Shown one piece after another: positions 4,786 to 28,913 of a stretch of DNA of 64,000 nucleotides. The translations under genes were made by a program, and so were the position numbers. The notes beneath the pieces are model-generated. The model had not been told where the DNA came from, searched no databases, and worked only from the letters and a program-made list of their open reading frames with translations. The stretch lies in assembly GCA_002450835.1 (NCBI GenBank), contig DKAM01000019.1, forward strand, positions 5,991-69,990, written 5' to 3'. Each line of letters opens with the position of its first letter. The first letter of the stretch is position 1. This DNA is from Dehalococcoidia bacterium UBA6926 (lineage in GTDB: Bacteria > Chloroflexota > Dehalococcoidia > UBA6926).

Positions 4786-6684
4786 TTACTTACTGGGACC
4801 AACTACTACTAAAGCATCTCCTTTAGCGACTCTGTCACCACTATTTCTGGGTAGCTCTAGTATAATGCCGTCTGCGGATGCCGGCAGCATATTTTGCATT
4901 TTCATAGCTTCTATGACAACCAAAGTATCGCCTTTTTTAACTTTGTCACCGATTTTAACTTCGTATCTTATAACCAACCCTGGCATTGGAGCTGTTATGA
5001 GGTAGCCTCCTTCAGGTGCAGACAAACCAGATTTAGTTACTTCCGTGGATGACATCGCTGGTGGTGGCTGCAAAGGCCGCCCTCCTTGGTTCGGATCTCT
5101 AAAGCTTCTAATTCTAGGGCCAGTTGTGTTGGAAGACTCCACTATTATGTCAAATTCCTTTTCACCTACGTAAACTTTGTATGACCTAGAGTTCGCTCCT
5201 GGACCAACCGCCGGTTTGTTTACATCCTTTGTATTTGGTTCCTCTTGTTTTTCCGTAGAATAGGATTCTTTTTTAGGAGGGTCATCGATTCCGTGCTTCC
5301 AACGAAGGAACTGAAGTCCGGTTACAGGATATAGCGCATAAATTAGAACATCTCCTTCATCCGAGGAAATGTCGATGATATCCTCTTTTGCTTTGGCAAG
5401 TTCTGGTTCGAGGATATCAGCCGGTTTTTCTTTGGTAGGAGTTTCACCGCGTTCGTATCCCTTTAAAACCTTTTTTACCACCCGTTTATTCATAGGCAAG
5501 GGTGGTTGCCCGTATAGCCCAAATACGTAGTCTTTGATTTGCTGGCTTACCATCTCGTATCTACCGAACAAAACATTTTGAACTGCTTGAATACCTATAA
5601 TCTGGCTCGAGGGTGTTACTAACGGTGGATATCCAAGGTCTTTTCTAGTTTTCGGTAGTTCCTTTAGTACATCGGGGAGTTTGTCTAAAGCGTCAGCCTC
5701 AGCGAGCTGTGAAAGTAGGTTTGAGGTCATTCCTCCGGGAACTTGATGGGTTAGAACACTGGTATCTATTGTACTGAATTTTGATGGAGCCATAAAATCT
5801 GAGTAATGTTCTTGTAAGATGGTTTCTAATTTATCGCTGGCATCAATTATTCTATTTAGGTTAAAACCGGTGCTTCTTTCTGTTTTGTCTAAAGTCACAA
5901 TCAGAGGCTCCAATGGGGGATGCGCAGTTCTGAGTGATAATGGTGCTAAATCTGTATCGACAATATCTATTCCTGCTTCTATTGCTTTTAATTGGGTCAT
6001 TTGGCCCATACCGGATGTGTAGTGGGCATGTAATTCTATGGGTATAGAAACTGCATCTTTCAAAGCACTAACTAACTCGTATGCATCGTACGGAGATAAA
6101 AGAGCTGCCATATCTTTAATACACAAAGAATCGGCACCCATCTTCTCAATAGTTTTAGCTTTTTCGATAAAATAGTCTAAATTGAATACTGGTCCTCCCA
6201 TCTGCTGTTCGGTTACCGAGTAGCAGATAGTTCCTTGAACATGCTTTCCAGCTTCCTTTATAGCATCAAATGAAGATTCAAAATTCCGATGATCGTTTAA
6301 CGCATCGAAAACACGAAATATATCTATTCCTGACTTGGCAGAATATCTAATAAACTCTTTAACTACGTCGTCGGGGTAATTCCTGTAACCCACGAGATTT
6401 TGCCCTCTTAGTAGCATCATAAAAGGAGTTTTTGGTGCTACCTTTTTTAGGTCCTTTATACGCTCCCATGGATCTTCATTTAAATATCTCGTCATTACGT
6501 CAAAGGTAGCTCCACCCCATACTTCGAGAGCGGCGAATCCAACTTTATCAAGCATCCCTATTATTTCTTTTATGTGATTCGTCCGCATCCTTGTTGCCAT
6601 AATTGATTGATGCCCATCACGAAGGGTCACATCTGTGACTTGGACTTTAGAATCAGAGTTACGAAAAATATCTTTTGGATCCAT
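4786..6684 (-). CDS. Carboxyltransferase 5S-type subunit fused to a C-terminal biotinyl (BCCP) domain (PycB / OadA / transcarboxylase-5S-like)
   Basis: N-terminal VTDVTLRDGHQS TIM-barrel carboxyltransferase motif. C-terminal IEAMKMQN biotin-attachment motif preceded by a Pro/Ala linker. Confidence 0.85.
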   Translation of the reverse strand: MDPKDIFRNSDSKVQVTDVTLRDGHQSIMATRMRTNHIKEIIGMLDKVGFAALEVWGGATFDVMTRYLNEDPWERIKDLKKVAPKTPFMMLLRGQNLVGYRNYPDDVVKEFIRYSAKSGIDIFRVFDALNDHRNFESSFDAIKEAGKHVQGTICYSVTEQQMGGPVFNLDYFIEKAKTIEKMGADSLCIKDMAALLSPYDAYELVSALKDAVSIPIELHAHYTSGMGQMTQLKAIEAGIDIVDTDLAPLSLRTAHPPLEPLIVTLDKTERSTGFNLNRIIDASDKLETILQEHYSDFMAPSKFSTIDTSVLTHQVPGGMTSNLLSQLAEADALDKLPDVLKELPKTRKDLGYPPLVTPSSQIIGIQAVQNVLFGRYEMVSQQIKDYVFGLYGQPPLPMNKRVVKKVLKGYERGETPTKEKPADILEPELAKAKEDIIDISSDEGDVLIYALYPVTGLQFLRWKHGIDDPPKKESYSTEKQEEPNTKDVNKPAVGPGANSRSYKVYVGEKEFDIIVESSNTTGPRIRSFRDPNQGGRPLQPPPAMSSTEVTKSGLSAPEGGYLITAPMPGLVIRYEVKIGDKVKKGDTLVVIEAMKMQNMLPASADGIILELPRNSGDRVAKGDALVVVGPSK

Positions 6685-6924: not shown

Positions 6925-8478
6925 TTAGAGAGGTATATTCCCGTGTTTCTTTGAAGGAACTGAATCAGTTTTATTTTCTAACATTGATAGCGCGCTGACT
7001 ATCATTTTCCTTGTATCTGAGGGGTCAATGACATCCTCTATGTAACCCTTGCTAGCTGTAACATATGGGTTTGCGAATTGTTCTTGATATTCTTGAGTAG
7101 CAAGTTTTCTTTCCATTTCTGAATTTTCTGATTCTCTAATTCGATTTCTAAAAATAATATTAGCGGCTCCTTCAGCTCCCATAACAGCCATTTCTGCGCC
7201 TGGCCAAGCATAATTTATGTCTCCTCTGAGCATCTGGGAGGACATTACAATTAATGCTCCACCATACGCTTTTCTTGTCACAATTCCTACCTTTGGCACG
7301 GTTGCTTCAGTATATGCATACAATAGTTTGGCTCCATGCGTTATGATGCCGTTATGTTCTTGATCTACGCCTGGTAAGTAGCCGGGAACATCAGTTAGGG
7401 TAACTAGTGGAATATTAAAGCAATCACAAAATCTAACGAATCGAGCGGCTTTTATGGCAGCTTTGATGTCTAAAGCTCCGGACATGACCATAGGTTGTTG
7501 ACCTATTATGCCTGTTGTCTTCCCGTTAAATCTGCCAAACCCCACTACAATGTTTTGGGCCCATGATTGGTGGACTTCCAAAAAGCCCCCACCAATATCC
7601 ACTATCGAATCAATGAAATCTCTCATGTCATAGGGTTGGTTTGGGTCTTCTGGAACTAAGTCCATCAATTCTGGGGTTGGTCTACTAGGATTATCTGCAG
7701 TATCTGCAAACGTAGAATCCTCCAAGTTATTCGATGGAAGAAAGCTTAGCAGATCCCTGGCAAGGTCTAAGCTTTCTTCCTCACCATCAGTGCCGAAATG
7801 TGCTACTCCACTCATTGTTGTGTGAGCATCGGCACCACCTAATTGCTCGTGTGTTACTTCCTCACCGGTAACGGTTTTTATTACGTCTGGACCGGTTATA
7901 TACATTTGGCCTACGCCTTTTTCCATTATAATGAAATCAGTTAGAGCAGGGCTGTAAACGGCTGCGCCAGCAGCTGGACCCATTATGATACTAATTTGAG
8001 GAATCACTCCAGAGGATAAGACATTCCTTTGAAAGATTTGCCCTACACCCCAGAGGCTGTCAACACCTTCTTGAATCCTAGCCCCGCCTGAATCCAAGAT
8101 ACCTATTATTGGGGACCCAGTTTTTAGTGCTAGGTCTTGGACCTTCATAGTTTTTTTTGAAGCAACCAATGACATGGTTCCCCCTAAAACAGTGAAGTCA
8201 AAGGCGTATACAAAAACTGTTCTACCATCAATTTTCCCATACCCTGTTACTACTGAATCACCTGGGACTTTTCTGTCTGCTATTCCAAATTCATTGACAT
8301 CATGCGTTACAAAAGGATCTAGTTCAATAAAAGTTCCAGGATCTAAAAGGCGGTTGATTCTCTCATGCGCAGTCATTTTGCCCCGTGCATGTTGTCTTTC
8401 TATTGCCGCTTCGCCCCCACCTTGAGACGAGGCAGATCGACGTTTGGATAATTCATCAAGTTTATCTTGCATAGTCAT
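6925..8478 (-). CDS. pccB: Propionyl-CoA carboxylase beta chain / methylmalonyl-CoA carboxyltransferase 12S subunit
   Basis: Canonical N-terminus (DKLDEL...GGG...IERQHARGKMTAHERI..LLDPGTF.E) and two crotonase-like carboxyltransferase halves. Confidence 0.9.
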   Translation of the reverse strand: MTMQDKLDELSKRRSASSQGGGEAAIERQHARGKMTAHERINRLLDPGTFIELDPFVTHDVNEFGIADRKVPGDSVVTGYGKIDGRTVFVYAFDFTVLGGTMSLVASKKTMKVQDLALKTGSPIIGILDSGGARIQEGVDSLWGVGQIFQRNVLSSGVIPQISIIMGPAAGAAVYSPALTDFIIMEKGVGQMYITGPDVIKTVTGEEVTHEQLGGADAHTTMSGVAHFGTDGEEESLDLARDLLSFLPSNNLEDSTFADTADNPSRPTPELMDLVPEDPNQPYDMRDFIDSIVDIGGGFLEVHQSWAQNIVVGFGRFNGKTTGIIGQQPMVMSGALDIKAAIKAARFVRFCDCFNIPLVTLTDVPGYLPGVDQEHNGIITHGAKLLYAYTEATVPKVGIVTRKAYGGALIVMSSQMLRGDINYAWPGAEMAVMGAEGAANIIFRNRIRESENSEMERKLATQEYQEQFANPYVTASKGYIEDVIDPSDTRKMIVSALSMLENKTDSVPSKKHGNIPL

Positions 8479-15205: not shown

Positions 15206-17614
15206 CTACTTGATTGCACCTAGTTTTGTGAAGTCCTCGATTTCTTTTTGTGATAACCCCAGTATTGTTCGAAATACATAATCGTTATCATCACCGATTA
15301 AGGGCGTTCTACCATTAGCCCATGATGCAGATATTGATGGTATTCCAGGTAACCCTTGATGTGATAACTTGCCCCATGGAGCCTGGTCGTTATCGACTAC
15401 ATGGGCTCTGGATCTCATTTGTTGGTTGTTCAGCAGGTGTTCGCCTTTTAGCATAACTCCTGCAGGCACTCCTAAAGATTGAAGCAGATGCATCAATGGA
15501 TGAGGGTAATGAGAAGAAGACCAATTAGCGATATTTGAATCTAGCTCCTTTCTATTAGCTCTCCTATTGCTAATAGAGTTAAATTTTTTATCACTAACCC
15601 ACTTTGGTTCGCCCAGCGCAGTTTTCAATCCTTGCCACTCTTCTTCGGTTTCCACAGCTATGATTACCCATTCATCTTCTCCAAGACAAGGGTACGCACC
15701 ATAGGGAGAATACTGCTGACCAAGTATTTCGTTATACCCTTGTGCATCCCATTCTTTTGTATTTACTGTGCTATCTAATATAGAAGGTCCCATAAGTGCG
15801 CCTTGAGCCTCCAGTTGTGCTAATTCAATGAATTGTCCTTCTCCTGTTAAGTCGCGGAACTCTATGGCGGCCAGTGAGGATAGTGCGACAAGGGCTGCTC
15901 CTAAATAATCTGGTATGACTATTTTACCGTGTGATTCCATAGGTGATTCTTCGTGGCCCCACATATGTATCATTCCGGTGTATGCGAGTAGCTGCGTTCC
16001 CCATGTGACCCAGTCCGTAAGTGGTCCATCGAGCCCCATACCTGGTGCAGTTATTTGTATTAATCCAGGGTTAATGGCTCTTGTTTTGTCCCTCCCAAAT
16101 CCTAACCGATCAATAACTCTAGGAGAAAAATTATCGATGAAAATATCGCTCTGTTTTAGTAGTGCTTCCAATAATAGTTTTCCATCACTATTTCTCAAAT
16201 CGAATGTCGCGCTCAGCTTATTTCGATTCATATCTGGGTAAAGGACACCTTCTCTAGTTGCGACTAGTAATTCAGATTCAAGTTTTATTACCTCGGCTCC
16301 ATAAAACCCCATAAACATAGTACCTATTGGACCTGCAAAAAATCTCGAGAGATCGGCTACGCGGATACCCTTTAACATCGGGCTATCTTTTGTTTCTAAT
16401 TTTTCTTTGGGGGCTGCATTTGTCTTCTTTCTCGATCCTGTACTTAATTCATCTAGGATTTCATCCTGATGTTGTCCTAGAGTTGGAGAAGACCGCCAAA
16501 CTTTCATCGGGGTTTTTTCCATTTTAAAGGGAAATCCCGGAGCCTCATATTCACCTATAATGGGATGATCGATTTTTTGGACCCATTTCCTCTGTTTTAA
16601 GTGATTGCTTTGCATAAAATCCCCAGGTGTGTTCACTGGGGCGCAAGGGAGACCTCGCTTCTGACATTCATTTACAAAATCTTCGGACGTAAATTGGGCG
16701 ACGAAATCTTGCATGGCCATACTAATTACATCCGCGTTTTCTTCGCGGTAGTCCGGGTTATCCCATTCAACCCCTGATAACAGTGGATCTTCCATCCATT
16801 CCCTTGTAATTTTATGCCAATGAGGAAGAATAAAAATTGACATATATATATATTTTCCATCTTTACAGCGAAAAATATTGGAAGCGCCTGCTTGCCCTTT
16901 TACCCCATGGCGCTTTAGTACTTCATTTCTTCCGGAGTACCGTGCAATAGCGCTCATAGCCATGTAGGAGATACTTTCTGTTAACGCTTGATCAATTTTT
17001 TGGCCTTGTCCTGAGCGCCTGGCATGACGTATGCCAGCAAGTGTCAAATATGATGAGTGTACTCCAGCTAATTGATAGGTTATATGATTCGGAGTTACTA
17101 CAGGGGGCATCAGATCATCGCCGTGAACTGACATAAACCCGGATAGTGCCTCCACAATCGCGTGGGACCCTTTATAGGCTGCGTAAGGGCCAGTTTCTCC
17201 GAATGGTGTTATGGATGTTGTAACTAAGCGTTTATTTCTTCCTAAAAGGATTTCTTGGCCTAAGCCAAGTTCTTCTAGATACCCTGGATTATTTGATTCA
17301 ATAAGAGCATCTGCAGTTTCTATAAGCTGCAAAAATGTTTCCTTATCTTTAGGCGAGCCCACTATATCGAGGGCAATAGATCTCTTGTTTAGATTTGCAT
17401 TGATAAAACTTAGGCTTCGCTCAGGGTCTTCTATATTATTGGCAAAAGGTGGCAGTAATCTATTGGGGTCTCCTTTAAGCGGTTCAATTTTAATGATATC
17501 TGCGCCTAAATCGCCGAGCCATCGGGTTGCATAGGATGAAGGGATGCCGCCATATTCTAAGATCCGTAAGTGACCCAGCGATGCCCTATCAGGTGTATGT
17601 ATATTTTCTGGCAT
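15206..17614 (-). CDS. Fused tandem di-domain family III CoA-transferase (CaiB/BaiF family), paralog 1
   Basis: 802 aa. Residues ~1-400 and ~410-802 each contain a complete CaiB-like domain (HLRILEYGGIPSSYATRWLGDLGADIIKIE and GIRVADLSRFFAGPIGTMFMGFYGAEVIKLE Rossmann N-termini). ~70% identical to the adjacent paralog. Confidence 0.8.
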   Translation of the reverse strand: MPENIHTPDRASLGHLRILEYGGIPSSYATRWLGDLGADIIKIEPLKGDPNRLLPPFANNIEDPERSLSFINANLNKRSIALDIVGSPKDKETFLQLIETADALIESNNPGYLEELGLGQEILLGRNKRLVTTSITPFGETGPYAAYKGSHAIVEALSGFMSVHGDDLMPPVVTPNHITYQLAGVHSSYLTLAGIRHARRSGQGQKIDQALTESISYMAMSAIARYSGRNEVLKRHGVKGQAGASNIFRCKDGKYIYMSIFILPHWHKITREWMEDPLLSGVEWDNPDYREENADVISMAMQDFVAQFTSEDFVNECQKRGLPCAPVNTPGDFMQSNHLKQRKWVQKIDHPIIGEYEAPGFPFKMEKTPMKVWRSSPTLGQHQDEILDELSTGSRKKTNAAPKEKLETKDSPMLKGIRVADLSRFFAGPIGTMFMGFYGAEVIKLESELLVATREGVLYPDMNRNKLSATFDLRNSDGKLLLEALLKQSDIFIDNFSPRVIDRLGFGRDKTRAINPGLIQITAPGMGLDGPLTDWVTWGTQLLAYTGMIHMWGHEESPMESHGKIVIPDYLGAALVALSSLAAIEFRDLTGEGQFIELAQLEAQGALMGPSILDSTVNTKEWDAQGYNEILGQQYSPYGAYPCLGEDEWVIIAVETEEEWQGLKTALGEPKWVSDKKFNSISNRRANRKELDSNIANWSSSHYPHPLMHLLQSLGVPAGVMLKGEHLLNNQQMRSRAHVVDNDQAPWGKLSHQGLPGIPSISASWANGRTPLIGDDNDYVFRTILGLSQKEIEDFTKLGAIK

Positions 17615-17674: not shown

Positions 17675-20080
17675 TTAGTTGATTGCGCCTGAGTTGATAC
17701 CCTCACTTATATCTTTTTCTGTCATTCCTAGTATTTCTCCAAAAACATAATCGTTATGGTCTCCGATCCAAGGAGGTAAACCATCTGCGTGAGCTTCTGA
17801 CATTCCTGGAATAGCTGGGAGGCCTTGGTGTGATAGGTCTCCCCATGGAGGTTCATGTATATCTACAATGTGCCCTCTCTTCCTTAGATGTATATTGCTG
17901 TAAAGATCTTCTCCATTTAACACGGCACCAGCTGGCACTCCGTTATTTTGCAATATACGCATTGCTTGATACCGGGTGTATTCAGAACTCCATGCACCTA
18001 TTTGCGCATCTAAATCCTTTTGGTTTTCTTTGCGTTTCTCATGGGAAGAATACTTTTCATCATTAATCCAAGTGGGATTTCCAAGTGCATTAACTAAGCC
18101 TTCCCATTCCGATTCTTCAGATACAGCTATAACAACCCAATTATCGTCTCCTTTACATGGATATGCGCCATATGGAGCGTAGTGGTCGCCTAATATTTCT
18201 CCATAACCCAAAGCATCCCATTCATTTTGGTTAACCGTTGCATCTAATATAGAAGGCCCCATTATGGCTCCTTGCGCTTCTACCTGGGCAAGTTCAATAA
18301 ATTGACCAATTCCGGTTCGGTCGCGATATTCGATAGCCGCAATTGAGGATAAAGCAACAAGAGAAGCTCCCAAATAATCTGGTACAACCAGTTTCCCGTG
18401 AGCATCCATGGAGGATTCTTCGAAAGCCCACATGTGTGTTAGTCCTGTATATGCGACTAGCTGATTCCCCCAAGTTACCCAGTTTGTTAACGGCCCATCT
18501 AGCCCCATACCGGGTGCTGTAATTTGTATTATGCCAGGGTTAATCGTTTGAACTCGATCCCAACCAAATCCTAAACGGTCTATGACACGAGGAGAGAAAT
18601 TGTCGATTAGAACGTCACTTTTTATTAAAAGTTCATCCAATAAAGATTTTCCTTGATCATTCCTTAGGTCGAAAGTCGCGCTTAGCTTATTTCTATTCAT
18701 ATCAGGATATAAAACCTGTTCTCGGTTTGCTACCAATAGCTCGCTTTCAAGTTTTATTACCTCAGCTCCATAAAATCCCAAAAACATGGTGCCTATAGGA
18801 CCAGCAAAGAAACGCGTAAGATCAGCGACACGGATGCCACTAAGCATAGGGGCTTCTGGAGATACAAGTTCAGTATTCTGGTGAGTTTCTTTTTTTGTTT
18901 CAAGGGTTTCTAGTTCTGCAAGTATTTCTTCTTGGTGCTCGCCCAAAGTTGGAGAATGCTTCCATGCCCGCATAGGTGTTTTCTCCATTTTAAATAGGAA
19001 CCCGGGAGCTTGGTATTCACCAATTACTGGATGGTGAAGAGTTTGTATCCAATTTCTCGATTTGAGTTGTTCGCTGTTCATGAATTCTCCAGGAGTATTC
19101 ACAGGGGAACATGGTAACCCACGCTCTTGACATTGTGCGACGAAATCTGCAGCATCAAATTGTTCAATAAATGATTGTAAAAGTACATTTATAACGTCGC
19201 CATTATCTCCTCTATATTGAGCGTCATCCCATTCTTCTCCTGATAGTACAGGATCCTCCATCCATTCCCTTGTTATTTTGTGCCAGTGGGGAAGTATGTA
19301 TATCGATATATAGATATATTTCCCATCCTTACACCGAAAAATATTAGAAGCGCCTCCTTGCGGTTTCGCTCCATTTCGCTCCACAATCTCACTTCTATCG
19401 GTATATCTTGCTACAGCGCTAGAGCCCATATAGGTAATACTTTCTTGAATCGATTGGTCTATTTGTTGGCCCTTGCCAGACCTTTTACTATGGCGGATTC
19501 CTGCAAGTGTTAGATAAGCACCATGGACGCTCGCCACTTGATAAGTAATATGGTTAGGGGTAACTACCGGTGGCATAATGTCATCCCCGTGGGCACTCAT
19601 GAAACCTGCAAGTGCTTCAACGATCCCGTGAGAACCTCGGTATTTTGAGTACGGACCAATTTGTCCAAAAGGGGTTATGGAAGTGGTTACAAGATTTTCA
19701 TTGGTATTTAGTAAAACCTCTTGGGAAAGGCCCCAACCATCAAACGTTCCCGGACGGGTTGATTCAACAAGAGCATCCGCGCTAGCTATTAATTTTAGAA
19801 ACGTTTCTTTATCTTTTTCTGAACTTTCTAGGTCCAGGACTATGGATCGTTTATTTAGATTTGCATTTATAAAAGTTAGGCTCTTTTCTGGATCAGGAAC
19901 GTTTCCAGAAAAAGGTCCAAGCGTCCTTGCACTGTCACCGCCGGGTTTCTCAATCTTAATAACGTCGGCCCCTAAATCTCCTAGCCATCTAGTTGCGTAC
20001 GACGCCGGGATATCTCCATATTCTAGTATTCTAAGATGGCTCAAAGCGCCATGATTTGGCTTATCTAGTGGTGTCGTCAT
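17675..20080 (-). CDS. Fused tandem di-domain family III CoA-transferase (CaiB/BaiF family), paralog 2
   Basis: 801 aa, same architecture. Co-linear with paralog 1 over its full length (about 70% identity by eye). A 60-nt spacer separates the two genes. Confidence 0.8.
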   Translation of the reverse strand: MTTPLDKPNHGALSHLRILEYGDIPASYATRWLGDLGADVIKIEKPGGDSARTLGPFSGNVPDPEKSLTFINANLNKRSIVLDLESSEKDKETFLKLIASADALVESTRPGTFDGWGLSQEVLLNTNENLVTTSITPFGQIGPYSKYRGSHGIVEALAGFMSAHGDDIMPPVVTPNHITYQVASVHGAYLTLAGIRHSKRSGKGQQIDQSIQESITYMGSSAVARYTDRSEIVERNGAKPQGGASNIFRCKDGKYIYISIYILPHWHKITREWMEDPVLSGEEWDDAQYRGDNGDVINVLLQSFIEQFDAADFVAQCQERGLPCSPVNTPGEFMNSEQLKSRNWIQTLHHPVIGEYQAPGFLFKMEKTPMRAWKHSPTLGEHQEEILAELETLETKKETHQNTELVSPEAPMLSGIRVADLTRFFAGPIGTMFLGFYGAEVIKLESELLVANREQVLYPDMNRNKLSATFDLRNDQGKSLLDELLIKSDVLIDNFSPRVIDRLGFGWDRVQTINPGIIQITAPGMGLDGPLTNWVTWGNQLVAYTGLTHMWAFEESSMDAHGKLVVPDYLGASLVALSSIAAIEYRDRTGIGQFIELAQVEAQGAIMGPSILDATVNQNEWDALGYGEILGDHYAPYGAYPCKGDDNWVVIAVSEESEWEGLVNALGNPTWINDEKYSSHEKRKENQKDLDAQIGAWSSEYTRYQAMRILQNNGVPAGAVLNGEDLYSNIHLRKRGHIVDIHEPPWGDLSHQGLPAIPGMSEAHADGLPPWIGDHNDYVFGEILGMTEKDISEGINSGAIN

Positions 20081-24172: not shown

Positions 24173-24201
24173 TATACTGTTGGCTCCTTTATTTATGTTT
24201 A

Positions 24202-24408
24202 TTATTCGTTGTCTTGGTTGGTCGACCGTGTTTTTGGTTGGATCACCTGGCGTCCATTGTAAGTTCCACAGGATGGACATGCTTGATGCGGTAACTTCGC
24301 ATTGTTACATTCTGGACATCTTGCAAGATTCTTGAGTTTAAGCGCCGTATGAGAAAGCCGTTTGGCATTTCTCGTTTTTGTTCTTCGCCTTTTTGGAAGT
24401 GCTGGCAT
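24202..24408 (-). CDS. rpmF: 50S ribosomal protein L32
   Basis: PKRRRTKTRNAKR N-terminus and a C-x2-C...C-x2-C zinc ribbon. Confidence 0.8.
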   Translation of the reverse strand: MPALPKRRRTKTRNAKRLSHTALKLKNLARCPECNNAKLPHQACPSCGTYNGRQVIQPKTRSTNQDNE

Positions 24409-25059: not shown

Positions 25060-25452
25060 TTAAATATCGTTGACGTAAGAAACGATATCCCCCAAACTTG
25101 TTCCTGGGCCAAAAATCCCTTTGATACCTAGCTCTTCAAGTTCCTGATAATCTTGCTTAGGTATTATACCTCCAGCGAAAATTGCGACGTTATCTAACCC
25201 AGCATTTTGTAGCCCTTCGACGATTGCCGGGAATAGATCTAAATGTGCTCCAGACAGTATGCTTAGTCCTATGGCATCTACATCTTCTTGCAGGGCCGCC
25301 TGGACAATCATTTCTGGTGTCTGGCGTATCCCAGTATAGATGACCTCAAAACCTGCGTCCCTTAGTCCCCGTGCTACGACTTTTGCTCCCCTATCGTGGC
25401 CATCGAGCCCGGGCTTGGCGATCAGTATTCTTTTTGGTGTGGTGGTAGACAC
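25060..25452 (-). CDS. Methylmalonyl-CoA mutase B12-binding subunit (stand-alone C-terminal domain)
   Basis: [25 protein letters not shown] (DxHxxG cobalamin motif) and the flavodoxin-like fold signature. Confidence 0.9.
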
Positions 25453-25485
25453 GTAATATTCTCCTAACTAGTTCAAGTATTTCTA

Positions 25486-26310
25486 CTAAATTTCTCCAGC
25501 ATGGTTCGCGTTTTCATCTGTTAATAATACGAGAGTTCCGACAAAATCCAAAGGGTGTAAGGCCGTTAAAACTGGATCTCCGTTGTCGACAATAACTCGA
25601 ATATTCTTGTCTTCGGCTCTTTTAGCAATTACTGAGCTATCATCATTCTCTATAACTATGGCGTGCAACCCACTGCCAAAAATCTTTATTGCTTTTGCGA
25701 CTGGACCCGTTGAATTTAGTTGTTCTGCAAATTCAACTTCACTATTTTTTGTATCGAGCCATCCAGTATCCATTTCATAACTTTCAGATACGGCGGTTCT
25801 TTTTATTGGCATTTTAAACAAATCGGACCAGAGTTTTAGGTCTTTTTTCATATTCTCAGTTCTTAGAGTCACATGATGTAGAGAGATATCGATATTAGGA
25901 TCAAGAGCGGTTTCGGGCTCCTCAATAATACTGAGCCTTGTACCGCCTGTAGAATCAGGGTCCATCAAAATTGATTTCTTACCGTAAATCTCATTTTGGC
26001 GAATAGATGATTTGGCCCCTGAGGATTCAATGTGCTTTTGAAGAGAAGCAAGGTTATCTGTTGCCATACATATGTCGTAAAGGCCTTCTCCTCTGGTTGA
26101 AAGAAGCACCGCTGCGTCAGATTCCCCCGGCGATGGTGCTATCAGTTGGATGTTAGCATTTTTTGTGGGAATTGAGATCGTTTGTCCGAGATCAATGGTT
26201 TTTAAGCTATTTTCTTTAGGAGAAATACCGAGTACTGATTCGATTTTTGAAGCGGCAGCATCAATATCATTTACCAGTATTGAAACGTGTTTAATTTTGT
26301 TTATTGACAT
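25486..26310 (-). CDS. Two-domain VOC family protein, methylmalonyl-CoA epimerase-like (paralog A)
   Basis: 274 aa, two complete VOC domains (IKHVSILVNDID... and LHHVTLRTEN...). Located between the mutase catalytic and B12 genes. Confidence 0.6.
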   Translation of the reverse strand: MSINKIKHVSILVNDIDAAASKIESVLGISPKENSLKTIDLGQTISIPTKNANIQLIAPSPGESDAAVLLSTRGEGLYDICMATDNLASLQKHIESSGAKSSIRQNEIYGKKSILMDPDSTGGTRLSIIEEPETALDPNIDISLHHVTLRTENMKKDLKLWSDLFKMPIKRTAVSESYEMDTGWLDTKNSEVEFAEQLNSTGPVAKAIKIFGSGLHAIVIENDDSSVIAKRAEDKNIRVIVDNGDPVLTALHPLDFVGTLVLLTDENANHAGEI

Positions 26311-27119
26311 TATGTACCCCTTTTATCATTGAACATGATTAAAGTTCCAAAAAAGTCTAAAGGATGTATTAATCTTGCTACATTTTCACCCTGTTGATCC
26401 GCGATCACCCTTATGCCTTGCTTCTCGATTCTCGATTGTAATGCGCTGGCATCATCCGTTTCTAGTACTAGGCCATAAATACCTTCTCCTTGAGACTCTA
26501 TACGTTTTATTACCGGTCCGTTTGGCGCCGTTTGCTGTACAAATTCAATTTGTGAGTTACCTGCATCCAACATGGCCGTTTTTAAGGGTGCGTCATCACG
26601 TTCAGCTTTTCTATTTAACTTTAAGTTGAAACTATTTACCCAATTGTCTACAGCTGCATCACGGTCTAGAGTTGCGATAAGAAGATGATGAACACTTGTT
26701 GTTGTTTCCGTTGGCGTTCGTAAATTAACTTCAGCGATTTCTGTAAGAACACCATTTGCAGATTTAGGGTGAATAAATTCGATTTCTCCCACAAACCCTT
26801 CTCTTGGACTACCTCCAATAACTTGCACGTCTTTTGATTGCAATGTTGTTATTTCATTTGCTATATCTTCTACCTCAAAACATATGTGGTGAATTCCTTC
26901 ACCTCGTCTCTCCAGAAATTTACCCACTACGCTATCAGGTACGGTCGGCTGCATGAGCTCAAACCTGACATTTGCTGTGGGTATCAGAGCAGCAATAAGC
27001 TGCTGGTCTTCTATCTCTTCTTGTTTTGCGACTTCGAGTCCTAACACTGTAGAAAACTGGTCTATAGCCTTGGATATGTCTTTTACTGCGATTCCTATGT
27101 GATCAATTCTTTTAAACAT
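26310..27119 (-). CDS. Two-domain VOC family protein, methylmalonyl-CoA epimerase-like (paralog B)
   Basis: 269 aa. N-terminal half IDHIGIAVKDISKAIDQF...GEGIHHICFEVEDI is a classical MCE-like pattern; the second half is another full VOC domain. Stop/start overlap with paralog A. Confidence 0.6.
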   Translation of the reverse strand: MFKRIDHIGIAVKDISKAIDQFSTVLGLEVAKQEEIEDQQLIAALIPTANVRFELMQPTVPDSVVGKFLERRGEGIHHICFEVEDIANEITTLQSKDVQVIGGSPREGFVGEIEFIHPKSANGVLTEIAEVNLRTPTETTTSVHHLLIATLDRDAAVDNWVNSFNLKLNRKAERDDAPLKTAMLDAGNSQIEFVQQTAPNGPVIKRIESQGEGIYGLVLETDDASALQSRIEKQGIRVIADQQGENVARLIHPLDFFGTLIMFNDKRGT

Positions 27120-27158
27120 CTATCGATAACCTGCCTTATTTGTTTTACTGCTCACAAC

Positions 27159-28844
27159 CTAGAAGACTACCATTTCTTTTTGGACACCAAATATCTCTCT
27201 TAGAACGTCACTAATTTCGCCCGTTGTAGCCAAGGCCTCTACACACTCAATGATGGCTGGCATAGTGTTGTCTTCACTTCTAGCAACTTTGCTTAAATTA
27301 GCTAGTGCTGCTTCTACTTCAGATGAATTTCTTTTAGCCTTGACGCGGTTCAGACGCGCAATCTGGTTCTCGCTTTCTTTCGGATCAATTCGTAATATCT
27401 CTATAGGGGGTTCCTCCGTTGATTGGAATGCATTCACTCCGACGACTAATCTGCTTCCCTTTTCTATCTCAAGTTGCATTTGGTATGCCGCTTCATTAAT
27501 TTCTCTTTGTTGGAATCCTTGTTCTATTGCTATGACTGCCCCTCCAAGTTTATCAATTTGCTCTATGTATTTTTTAGCTTCTTGTTCCAATTGGTTAGTT
27601 AAGTTTTCAATTAAATAGGAACCAGCTAAAGGATCAATGGAATTTGTGATGCCAGACTCATGGGCCAATATTTGTTGCGTCCTAAGAGACACAGTAACCG
27701 CCTCCTCAGTAGGTAATGCTAGAGCTTCGTCTTTAGAATTTACGTGTAAAGACTGCGTACCGCCTAATACTGCTGAAAGAGCTTGGAGTGTTGATCGGAC
27801 TACGTTATTGTCCACCTGCTGGGCGGTCAACGTTACTCCTGCTGTTTGTGTATGGAATCTTAACGTTTGAGATCTTGGATTTTTTGAACCAAAGCGCTCA
27901 ACCATTATTTTTGCCCATAGTCTTCTAGCTGCTCTGAATTTTGCTACTTCCTCAAGTAAGTCACTTTGCGCTACAAAAAAGAATGCGAGTTGAGGCGCAA
28001 AATCATCTACCTCAAGGCCTGCAGCTATCGCAGCTTCTACGTACGCGATCGCGTGAGAAAGAGTGAAAGCTATCTCTTGAACAGCTGTGCATCCTGCTTC
28101 CCTCATATGGTAACCGCTAATTGATATTGTGTTCCAATTTGGGGTTTCAGAGGCGCAGTAGGCAAATAAATCGGTAATTAATCTCATAGAAGGTTTTGGA
28201 GGATATATGTAAGTCCCTCTCGCGACGTATTCCTTTAATAGATCGTTCTGAATAGTCCCGCGTAAATCTTTGGCGGGTACACCTTGTTTTTTTGCCACAG
28301 CTATATAGTAAGCTAGCAGGATTGAAGCGGTGGCGTTAATAGTCATTGATGTGGAGACTTTGGACAAATCAATGTCGTTGAAAGCGATCTCCATATCTTC
28401 CATATGGGATATTGGTACTCCTACTTTACCTACTTCCCCCAAAGCTATTGGGTGATCTGAATCGTATCCGGTCTGTGTAGGTAGATCGAAAGCCATAGAA
28501 AGGCCTGTTTGTCCTTGGTCCAATAAATATCGGTATCTGGTGTTTGTTTCTTCAGCTGATGCAAAACCGGAATATTGTCGCATTGTCCAGAGACGCCCTC
28601 TGTACATAGTGGGTTGGACGCCCCTTGTAAAGGGATATTGGGCTGGGTAACCAATATCATCTGAACCACTCGAGTCTGGTAGGTCTTCTGGTCCGTATAT
28701 TGGTTCAATATCTATATCAGAGGTAGTTGAAAAATTTATGTCTCGCTCTTTCCGCTTTTCAACCGCTGGACTCCATACTTTATCAATCCAATCTTTTTTG
28801 CTTTTTGGATTCTCCACATTTTCCCCCATTACATTTGGATACAA
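27159..28844 (-). CDS. Methylmalonyl-CoA mutase catalytic (large) subunit, N-terminal domain only
   Basis: [58 protein letters not shown]-barrel substrate-binding signature. No B12 domain; that is encoded separately. TTG start at 28844. Confidence 0.9.
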
Positions 28845-28884
28845 AGACTAAAACTCATCCAGAATAGGTTAGGCATAGAAATCA

Positions 28885-28913
28885 TGTCAACATTTATAGA
28901 TACATTGTCAACA
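28885..28913. repeat. Two TGTCAACA boxes 21 bp apart (TGTTGACA on the coding strand of the mutase operon), candidate -35/operator
   Basis: tgtcaaca at 28885-28892 and 28906-28913, in the 82-nt gap upstream of mcmA (minus strand). The proximal copy could serve as a TTGACA -35 with a weak TATTCT -10 18 nt downstream. Confidence 0.35.

Follow-up and report, generated by a model that had tools for sequence, protein, structure and literature searches.

Why should the two subunit genes of a split methylmalonyl-CoA mutase (MCM) be separated by two tandem genes whose products each resemble a double-length methylmalonyl-CoA epimerase (MCE)? The question is raised by positions 25060-28844 of a 64-kb stretch of contig DKAM01000019.1 from Dehalococcoidia bacterium UBA6926 (the whole stretch is hereafter called the window), where four co-directional open reading frames (ORFs) follow one another on the minus strand, with gaps that are short or absent, in the order mutase catalytic subunit, VOC-A, VOC-B and B12-binding subunit. 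An earlier note on this DNA had described these ORFs, all four of which are present on that strand, and had assumed that the middle pair contributes four epimerase-competent domains. Our analysis leads to another distribution of roles. It is highly probable that the locus encodes a split mutase together with a single-chain epimerase, VOC-A, whose N-terminal barrel is catalytic and whose C-terminal barrel replaces the second subunit. The explanation as a whole, in which VOC-B is added as an accessory that is not an epimerase, is one that we favour by a modest measure. We propose that the operon, in a host that would be a marine Dehalococcoidia (SAR202-like Chloroflexota) bacterium, may perform the last steps of propionyl-CoA catabolism, in which (S)-methylmalonyl-CoA would be converted to (R)-methylmalonyl-CoA and then to succinyl-CoA.

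Ligand sites of the four domains and the fused protein VOC-A

VOC-A (26310..27119, 269 amino acids) and VOC-B (25486..26310, 274 amino acids), which like all features of the locus lie on the minus strand, share 29% identity, in keeping with the earlier description of the paralogues as diverged. In both proteins Pfam recognises two separate Glyoxalase_4/Glyoxalase stretches, a domain hidden Markov model built in this analysis finds two MCE-like domains, and the AlphaFold2 models, for which 68 sequences were aligned, show two complete eight-stranded barrels; the Pfam stretches and the barrels bear out the claim that each of the tandem paralogues contains two complete VOC domains. The metal of human MCEE is held by beta1 His50, beta5 His122 and beta8 Glu172, which are strictly conserved in VOC enzymes, and the site lies within one protomer of a dimeric enzyme (PMC6525113). 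The ligands were mapped in 1JC4 numbering, for which the P. shermanii sequence was verified, and H12/Q65/H91/E141 correspond to H7/E54/H78/E127 of VOC-A. The beta8 Glu is reportedly both a metal ligand and the proposed catalytic base.

The complete metal-ligand set is found in one domain of the four, the N-terminal half of VOC-A (amino acids 1-131, 26727..27119), which reads H-E-H-E and reaches 133.8 bits with the epimerase model TIGR03081, whose curated cut-off is 114.95 bits. The beta5 His and the beta8 Glu are missing from the other three domains: the C-terminal half of VOC-A (amino acids 141-265, 26325..26699) reads H-E-G-M (H145, E192, G216, M262; 52.4 bits), the N-terminal half of VOC-B (amino acids 3-131, 25918..26304) H-Q-D-S (H8, Q55, D79, S127; 45.4 bits) and its C-terminal half (amino acids 143-266, 25513..25884) H-E-A-L (H146, E193, A217, L262; 40.4 bits). 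The alignments contain no indel near the ligand positions that could rescue any of these three. Taken whole, VOC-A scores 181.3 bits and VOC-B 81.2 bits. By its residues and score, then, one domain in four is a predicted canonical epimerase domain; the assumption of four competent domains fails, and the epimerase assignment of the earlier note holds for VOC-A and falls for VOC-B as it stands here. The equivalent of P. shermanii Glu48, the residue mutated in 6XBR/6XBS, was also considered as a family test and was dropped: human MCEE and the consensus of single-domain homologues both have Val at the aligned position, where VOC-A has Ala.

The model of VOC-A is confident (pLDDT 95.0, pTM 0.92). 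A Foldseek comparison matches a VOC-A domain to the S. coelicolor MCE 6wfh with TMt 0.92, an rmsd of 1.1 Å and 36% identity, and the whole chain to single-chain two-barrel VOC enzymes (HPPD, hydroxymandelate synthase) with TMq ~0.79. The N-site reads H-E-H-E without exception in A-type and single-copy relatives, and the pattern HEG[MLIF] is found in the C-terminal half of every A-type protein. The ratio of nonsynonymous to synonymous substitution rates (dN/dS) of VOC-A is 0.02-0.04, and its degenerate C-terminal half is still constrained (dN/dS 0.045); mean identity across species is 75% in the N-terminal and 61% in the C-terminal half. Both halves have kept the equivalents of the dimer contacts of human MCEE, namely an Ile three residues after the beta1 His and, in the beta7-beta8 loop, the Gly-Val/Thr; the loop glycines G123 and G258 are near-invariant. 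We propose that VOC-A is a fused, pseudo-dimeric epimerase of which one domain is live and the other structural, so that the N-barrel (H7, E54, H78, E127) would perform the epimerisation and the C-barrel would be a built-in, non-catalytic replacement for the second subunit, apparently kept as a structural partner. The covalent pseudo-dimer put forward by the earlier note is thus made plausible by the confident two-barrel models and by the dimer-contact residues in both halves, its geometry being a prediction.

This arrangement extends well beyond the window. When 1.84 billion representatives were searched exhaustively with a profile, 626 matches fell below 1e-30, among them dozens of clusters of 255-305 amino acids, and 146 double-length relatives were classified by their ligand sites. 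The design with an intact N-site and a degenerate C-site is the dominant form (89/146), followed by proteins in which neither site is canonical (33/146) and those in which one domain only was detected (18/146); a canonical C-site only, and two intact sites, were each found in 3/146. Textbook MCE is a homodimer with two equivalent sites. In dozens of clusters, of which the named ones are Chloroflexota, the dimer appears to have been made permanent in a single polypeptide, one of the two sites being almost always abandoned, which suggests that the second subunit is needed for structure and not for catalysis.

Two further double-VOC clades, P0082 (HAVQ/HELQ) and P0070 (HQEE/HEVE), were examined as possible members of the same family; neither is linked to a mutase and they are therefore regarded as unrelated families. 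Double-VOC genes with these ligand patterns were seen on a groundwater contig among TctC/TPP-enzyme genes (L086, 6001-6825; HAVQ/HELQ) and in a Chloroflexi metagenome-assembled genome (MAG) among glutamate dehydrogenase/PrmC genes (L087, 2414-3205; HQEE/HEVE). Elsewhere, MCE is repeatedly found joined to its pathway partners: the domain forms one protein with the B12-binding subunit of the mutase (273-282 amino acids) or with a MeaB/ArgK G-protein (456 amino acids) in other organisms, examples being P0100, P0111 (Tepidibacillus fermentans), P0119 and P0116. Several proteins of 384-551 amino acids also carry one MCE domain at one end (P0201, P0237, P0249, P0265, P0222).

The diverged paralogue VOC-B and its possible roles

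The second protein departs from MCE by steps that can be followed from species to species. Its C-barrel reads HEAL, with neither the beta5 His nor the beta8 Glu, in every orthologue. Its N-site has been eroded in at least four different ways, and the TIGR03081 score of the orthologues drops in step with this erosion: HEHE is kept in L016 and several metagenome proteins (158.9 bits for L016_B), Q[L/I]HE occurs in nine species (135.7 bits), HAHE in L004 (118.4 bits), HIHE in L007 and L015 (no score), HEHS in P0124 (103.6 bits), and HQDS in L003, the closest species orthologue (80.7 bits), in L083 and L085, and in the window. Because the N-site has decayed to H-Q-D-S and the C-site was already dead, VOC-B would be unable to work as a canonical epimerase; judged from these residues, it is not one in the lineage of the window. 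A composite metal site, formed by module 2 of the N-terminal half and module 1 of the C-terminal half of VOC-B, was rejected for the window: it suits QLHE/HEAL and not the HQDS/HEAL present there, and both models agree with HPPD in forming their barrels from modules 1+2 and 3+4.

The constraint on the two halves is inverted between the paralogues, the N-terminal half being the more conserved in VOC-A and the C-terminal half in VOC-B. Mean cross-species identity in VOC-B is 43% in the N-terminal and 68% in the C-terminal half, with 16 and 56 invariant positions, respectively; in the wider A4 set, 43 columns of the C-terminal half are invariant. The dN/dS of VOC-B is 0.09-0.13, with values of ~0.12-0.14 in both halves, also at dS above 1.5. 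Invariant residues that are specific to VOC-B, and never found in VOC-A, are R150, K170, S175, L198, L215, H216, P246 and A250, of which R150 probably faces the pocket as the beta1 His146 does, according to strand parity in the model. VOC-B also ends in a short motif, A268-N-H270-A271-G272 (25495..25509), that is conserved in VOC-B and missing in VOC-A. The H, A and G of this A-x-H-A-G tail are invariant in 17/17 VOC-B sequences from the loci, and in the wider A4 set the His is invariant and the A and G near-invariant. The AlphaFold2 model of VOC-B is confident overall (pLDDT 94.1, pTM 0.91), with a pLDDT of 68 for the last residues, which form the tail. When a profile of the C-terminal half was searched, the nearest solved relatives were MCEs (E ~1e-7), and no solved family came closer.

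VOC-B has been kept beside VOC-A with great regularity. A scan of one genome per species, for which the query was the C-terminal half of the protein only, returned 14 Dehalococcoidia/Chloroflexota MAGs, the closest being JAPYRO010000081 (79% identity). The order MCM, VOC-A, VOC-B, B12-binding subunit is maintained in 14/14 of these species-level genomes and in five metagenome loci, and the VOC-B ORF is intact in 19/19 loci. In the window, the stop codon of VOC-A and the start codon of VOC-B share one base (26310) in a TAATG junction (26308..26312). The same one-base overlap is present in L083 and L085, and L003 has a 3-nt gap; most other species have ~12-50 nt to the first in-frame VOC-B start, and four loci have ~120-590 nt. 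Among the widest spacings, ~540-590 nt lie between the VOC-A stop and the first in-frame VOC-B start in L009 (6379-6970) and L010 (6379-6915). In more distant SAR202-type relatives, one fused gene instead of two separates the mutase subunit genes (L002). Close relatives, where they are named, bear the names SAR202, Dehalococcoidia or Chloroflexota, and the cluster to which the VOC-B of the window belongs includes sequences from the deep chlorophyll maximum (DCM) of Tara Oceans station 034 as well as the NCBI entry MEC8945130.1, 'VOC family protein [Chloroflexota bacterium]'. A neighbour-joining tree, midpoint-rooted and with no support values, separates a B clade and an A clade, with the single-copy forms outside; the VOC-B of the window is its longest branch.

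We hypothesise that VOC-B arose by tandem duplication of a fused gene of the VOC-A type, and that it would have been retained and co-translated with VOC-A under a constraint exerted mainly on its C-barrel and on the new His-containing tail. It may now serve as an accessory subunit, either a pseudoenzyme or a ligand- or partner-binding protein, that works with VOC-A and/or the mutase. This role, which would be exercised through the C-barrel and the tail, is put forward tentatively, as a proposal that falls a little short of probable. Several points weigh against our reading of the locus. The tree from which the descent of the two proteins is read is midpoint-rooted and without bootstrap values. 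The N-terminal half of VOC-B is under purifying selection (dN/dS 0.12), and H8/Q55/D79 could still hold a metal. The beta1 His and beta4 Glu of its C-terminal half, together with the invariant Arg, would be as compatible with a new catalytic site as with a binding role. The VOC-B of most other species keeps the beta5 His and the beta8 Glu and passes the MCE cut-off, and may be active there. As regards VOC-A, the packing of its barrels in the manner of an MCE homodimer is predicted from fold-level matches and conserved interface residues.

The third of these points opens onto a different reading, in which the C-barrel of VOC-B would have gained an enzymatic activity of a new kind, directed at one of the acyl-CoAs of the pathway, with a metal-free or non-canonical metal site. 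H146, E191/E193, E221, the VOC-B-specific R150 and possibly the tail His270 would then be the residues of this site, an assignment that is as doubtful as the activity itself. In favour of such an activity are the far stronger conservation of the C-terminal half, the invariant residues that VOC-B has of its own, including an R150 with the strand parity of the beta1 ligand, an invariant tail His that VOC-A does not possess, and purifying selection together with strict operon linkage to the mutase. However, in every orthologue the C-barrel is without the canonical beta5 His and the beta8 Glu, the profile gives no solved family closer than MCE, the tail is modelled at lower confidence and no precedent reaction was identified; we consequently hold a new activity to be possible but rather unlikely. 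In a broader version, VOC-B would stand for a new subfamily that descends from MCE, occurs solely in the split-mutase operon of marine Dehalococcoidia and carries a new function in its repurposed C-barrel, and to this we can likewise lend only limited credence. Its constituent parts would be an N-terminal epimerase site in the course of being discarded, an invariant HHVTxRT whose Arg probably faces the pocket, invariant Glu residues and the new A-x-H-A-G tail, which is a speculative combination. The function could, with a similarly low likelihood, be that of a metal-independent or tail-completed acyl-CoA site, or else that of a protein partner; in the latter case VOC-B might conceivably tether the epimerase to the mutase, or assist the mutase in a MeaB-less genome region, a suggestion that we judge no less uncertain.

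The fourth point relates to the proposal of the earlier note that the paralogues are epimerases with different substrates. VOC-A and VOC-B would then both be active 2-alkylmalonyl-CoA epimerases with different preferences, for instance methylmalonyl- versus ethylmalonyl-CoA. Both proteins do derive from MCE, some VOC-B orthologues keep H-E-H-E and pass the cut-off (as L016_B does), and subfunctionalisation is frequent among tandem paralogues. Against this, the VOC-B of the window has Asp at the position of the beta5 His and Ser at that of the beta8 Glu, its score lies under 114.95 bits, its N-terminal half is the fastest-evolving part of the protein, the N-site has been lost by at least four routes across species, and genes of the ethylmalonyl-CoA pathway were not seen among the annotated ORFs of the window. 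A second epimerase with another specificity is therefore improbable in the window, and possible in species whose VOC-B retains HEHE. The loss of canonical ligands, a dN/dS ~3 times that of VOC-A and the long branch could also be taken as signs of a functionless duplicate turning into a pseudogene. To this we attach almost no credence: the ORF is intact at all loci, dN/dS stays low (0.09-0.13) in both halves even at the high dS values, the C-terminal half has kept its invariant positions and the conserved tail, the fold is predicted with confidence and the start is translationally coupled to VOC-A. The selection data exclude a pseudogene, and an accessory partner of VOC-A and/or the mutase is the role that we retain for VOC-B.

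The mutase and the surroundings of the operon

The mutase itself is an ordinary split B12 enzyme. Its catalytic (large) subunit (27159..28844) matches PF01642 at 744 bits and TIGR00641 at 767 bits, is 72-93% identical to the orthologues at 16 loci and has a dN/dS of 0.04. The mechanical ORF of 561 amino acids starts at a TTG; the mutase of relatives begins MGE(N/K)VENP, and because it begins at that ATG, the true start is probably the ATG at 28829, five codons in, which would give 556 amino acids. The subunit carries the motifs TMY79 and ARGTY208, which may correspond to the substrate residues Tyr89/Arg207 of P. shermanii MutB, an assignment with which an ethylmalonyl-CoA mutase would still be compatible. 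Isobutyryl-CoA mutase has Phe/Gln at the Tyr/Arg substrate positions of MCM. The B12-binding (small) subunit (25060..25452, 130 amino acids) matches TIGR00640 at 172 bits and PF02310 at 94 bits and contains DGHDRG, an instance of the cobalamin motif DxHxxG, at amino acids 17-22; its start codon is GTG, with AGGAG ahead of it. The division of the mutase into a catalytic and a B12-binding polypeptide, as first described, is thus confirmed by PF01642/TIGR00641 matches in one and PF02310/TIGR00640 matches in the other. The label 'archaeal-style' that had been attached to it adds nothing, because the related bacteria whose genomes were examined all have a mutase split in this way as their normal form. 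The same two-subunit form (TIGR00641 plus TIGR00640), with DxHxxG, is known from many archaea and bacteria, the MCM-type Tyr/Arg motifs being a putative further likeness; what is unusual here is the presence of genes between the two subunit genes. No gene of the MeaB type is found in the window: a search for the MeaB/ArgK P-loop GxPGxGKS[TS] gave nothing in any frame of the 64 kb, and the gene may sit elsewhere in the genome.

A promoter-like site, TTGACA-18-TATTCT (28861..28890, minus strand), lies just upstream of the mutase gene and is weak evidence for a promoter. A scan of the region for promoters and terminators gave site counts no higher than expected from shuffled sequence, so that the operon structure is deduced from spacing and synteny only. 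The VOC pair are the only VOC/MCE-like genes in the window, and the flanks are of a housekeeping nature, with YceD, FabD, NusB, ACP, UDG and RNase J on one side and an MFS transporter, a molybdo-hydroxylase, YajQ and RuvB on the other; this neighbourhood is syntenic in relatives. The ORF start of FabD (24173-24280) is probably placed too far upstream, relatives starting at about residue 37 of the 344-amino-acid ORF, which would give 308 amino acids. In L082/L083 a gene for ribosomal protein L32 lies between YceD and FabD.

Further genes of the window are of interest in their own right. At 15206-17614 and 17675-20080, both on the minus strand, two tandem genes encode proteins of 802 and 801 amino acids with two CoA_transf_3 stretches each; they are the doubled CaiB-type pair to which the earlier note had drawn attention, and its description stands. 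They show the same pattern of fusion followed by duplication as the VOC pair and may constitute a further covalent pseudo-dimer. Family III CoA-transferases are normally obligate interlocked dimers. At 4786-6684 (minus strand), a gene of 632 codons encodes HMGL-like, PYC_OADA and biotinyl domains, as in a 5S-type carboxylase subunit with a fused biotin carrier, and is adjoined at 6925-8478 (minus strand) by a gene for a 517-amino-acid 12S-type carboxyltransferase. This pair resembles a transcarboxylase-type unit, for which (S)-methylmalonyl-CoA could be a product or a substrate; next to the two genes, no ATP-grasp biotin carboxylase was seen. SdhA/SdhB are located at 24-2129.

Significance and relation to known systems

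The architecture of VOC-A is tidy and general, and the more intriguing element of the locus is VOC-B, with its inverted constraint and its new tail. VOC-B offers a natural series in which an active site decays by independent routes (HEHE, HAHE/HIHE, Q[L/I]HE, HEHS, HQDS) and selection moves to the other domain, and this series may be useful for studying the origin of pseudoenzymes and of new functions in the VOC superfamily. The automatic annotation of the fused proteins is mixed ('methylmalonyl-CoA epimerase', 'VOC family protein', 'catechol dioxygenase-like'), and pathway reconstructions of the abundant SAR202-type bacteria of the ocean should enter a single epimerase for this locus instead of two or four. 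In the open-access literature, we found no paper on a double-domain MCE, an MCE pseudoenzyme or a pair of MCE paralogues, and nothing relevant on SAR202 and glyoxalase or on the mechanism of S. coelicolor MCE; a SAR202 genome paper merely lists MCE as present.

The closest known system is MCE itself (EC 5.1.99.1; TIGR03081; 1JC4/1JC5, 6WF6/6WFH, human MCEE 3RMU). The N-terminal domain of VOC-A has the same fold, shares the set of beta1 His, beta4 Glu(Gln), beta5 His and beta8 Glu, and is likewise a genomic partner of the mutase. Known MCEs are homodimers of single-domain subunits of ~135-150 amino acids with two active sites per dimer (PMC6525113), whereas VOC-A places two domains in one chain of 269 amino acids with one surviving site. 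VOC-B departs further: its score is below the family cut-off, and each of its domains has lost two of the three ligands that are strictly conserved. All the MCE forms that we found solved or described are single-domain homodimers.

Single-chain, two-barrel architectures are well established elsewhere in the superfamily. HPPD, hydroxymandelate synthase and the extradiol dioxygenases (1T47, 2R5V, 5ZSZ) have four beta-alpha-beta-beta-beta modules per chain, arranged in two barrels of which one is catalytic, and the whole-chain match to enzymes of the HPPD type reaches TMq 0.71-0.79 at 10-16% identity. In these enzymes, however, the C-terminal barrel is catalytic and performs oxygenation with Fe(II), whereas in VOC-A it would be the N-terminal barrel that is live, and VOC-A is an MCE by sequence. 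The HPPD-type site of two His and one Glu was found in the C-barrel of neither VOC protein, and TIGR01263 gives 47 bits against a cut-off of 277. Monomeric two-domain glyoxalase I (lactoylglutathione lyases of 296-298 amino acids, 5D7Z/6BNZ, which are weak matches) provides a parallel in which a normally homodimeric VOC enzyme is found as a fused pseudo-dimer with one of its two sites non-functional. Maize GLX1 has one functional and one cryptic site. Glyoxalase I nonetheless belongs to another VOC family with another reaction, has its sites between modules and comes with neither a tandem paralogue nor a mutase operon. When set beside these systems, what is new here is the fused-MCE architecture, a variant of a known enzyme whose proteins were already present in databases under automatic names.

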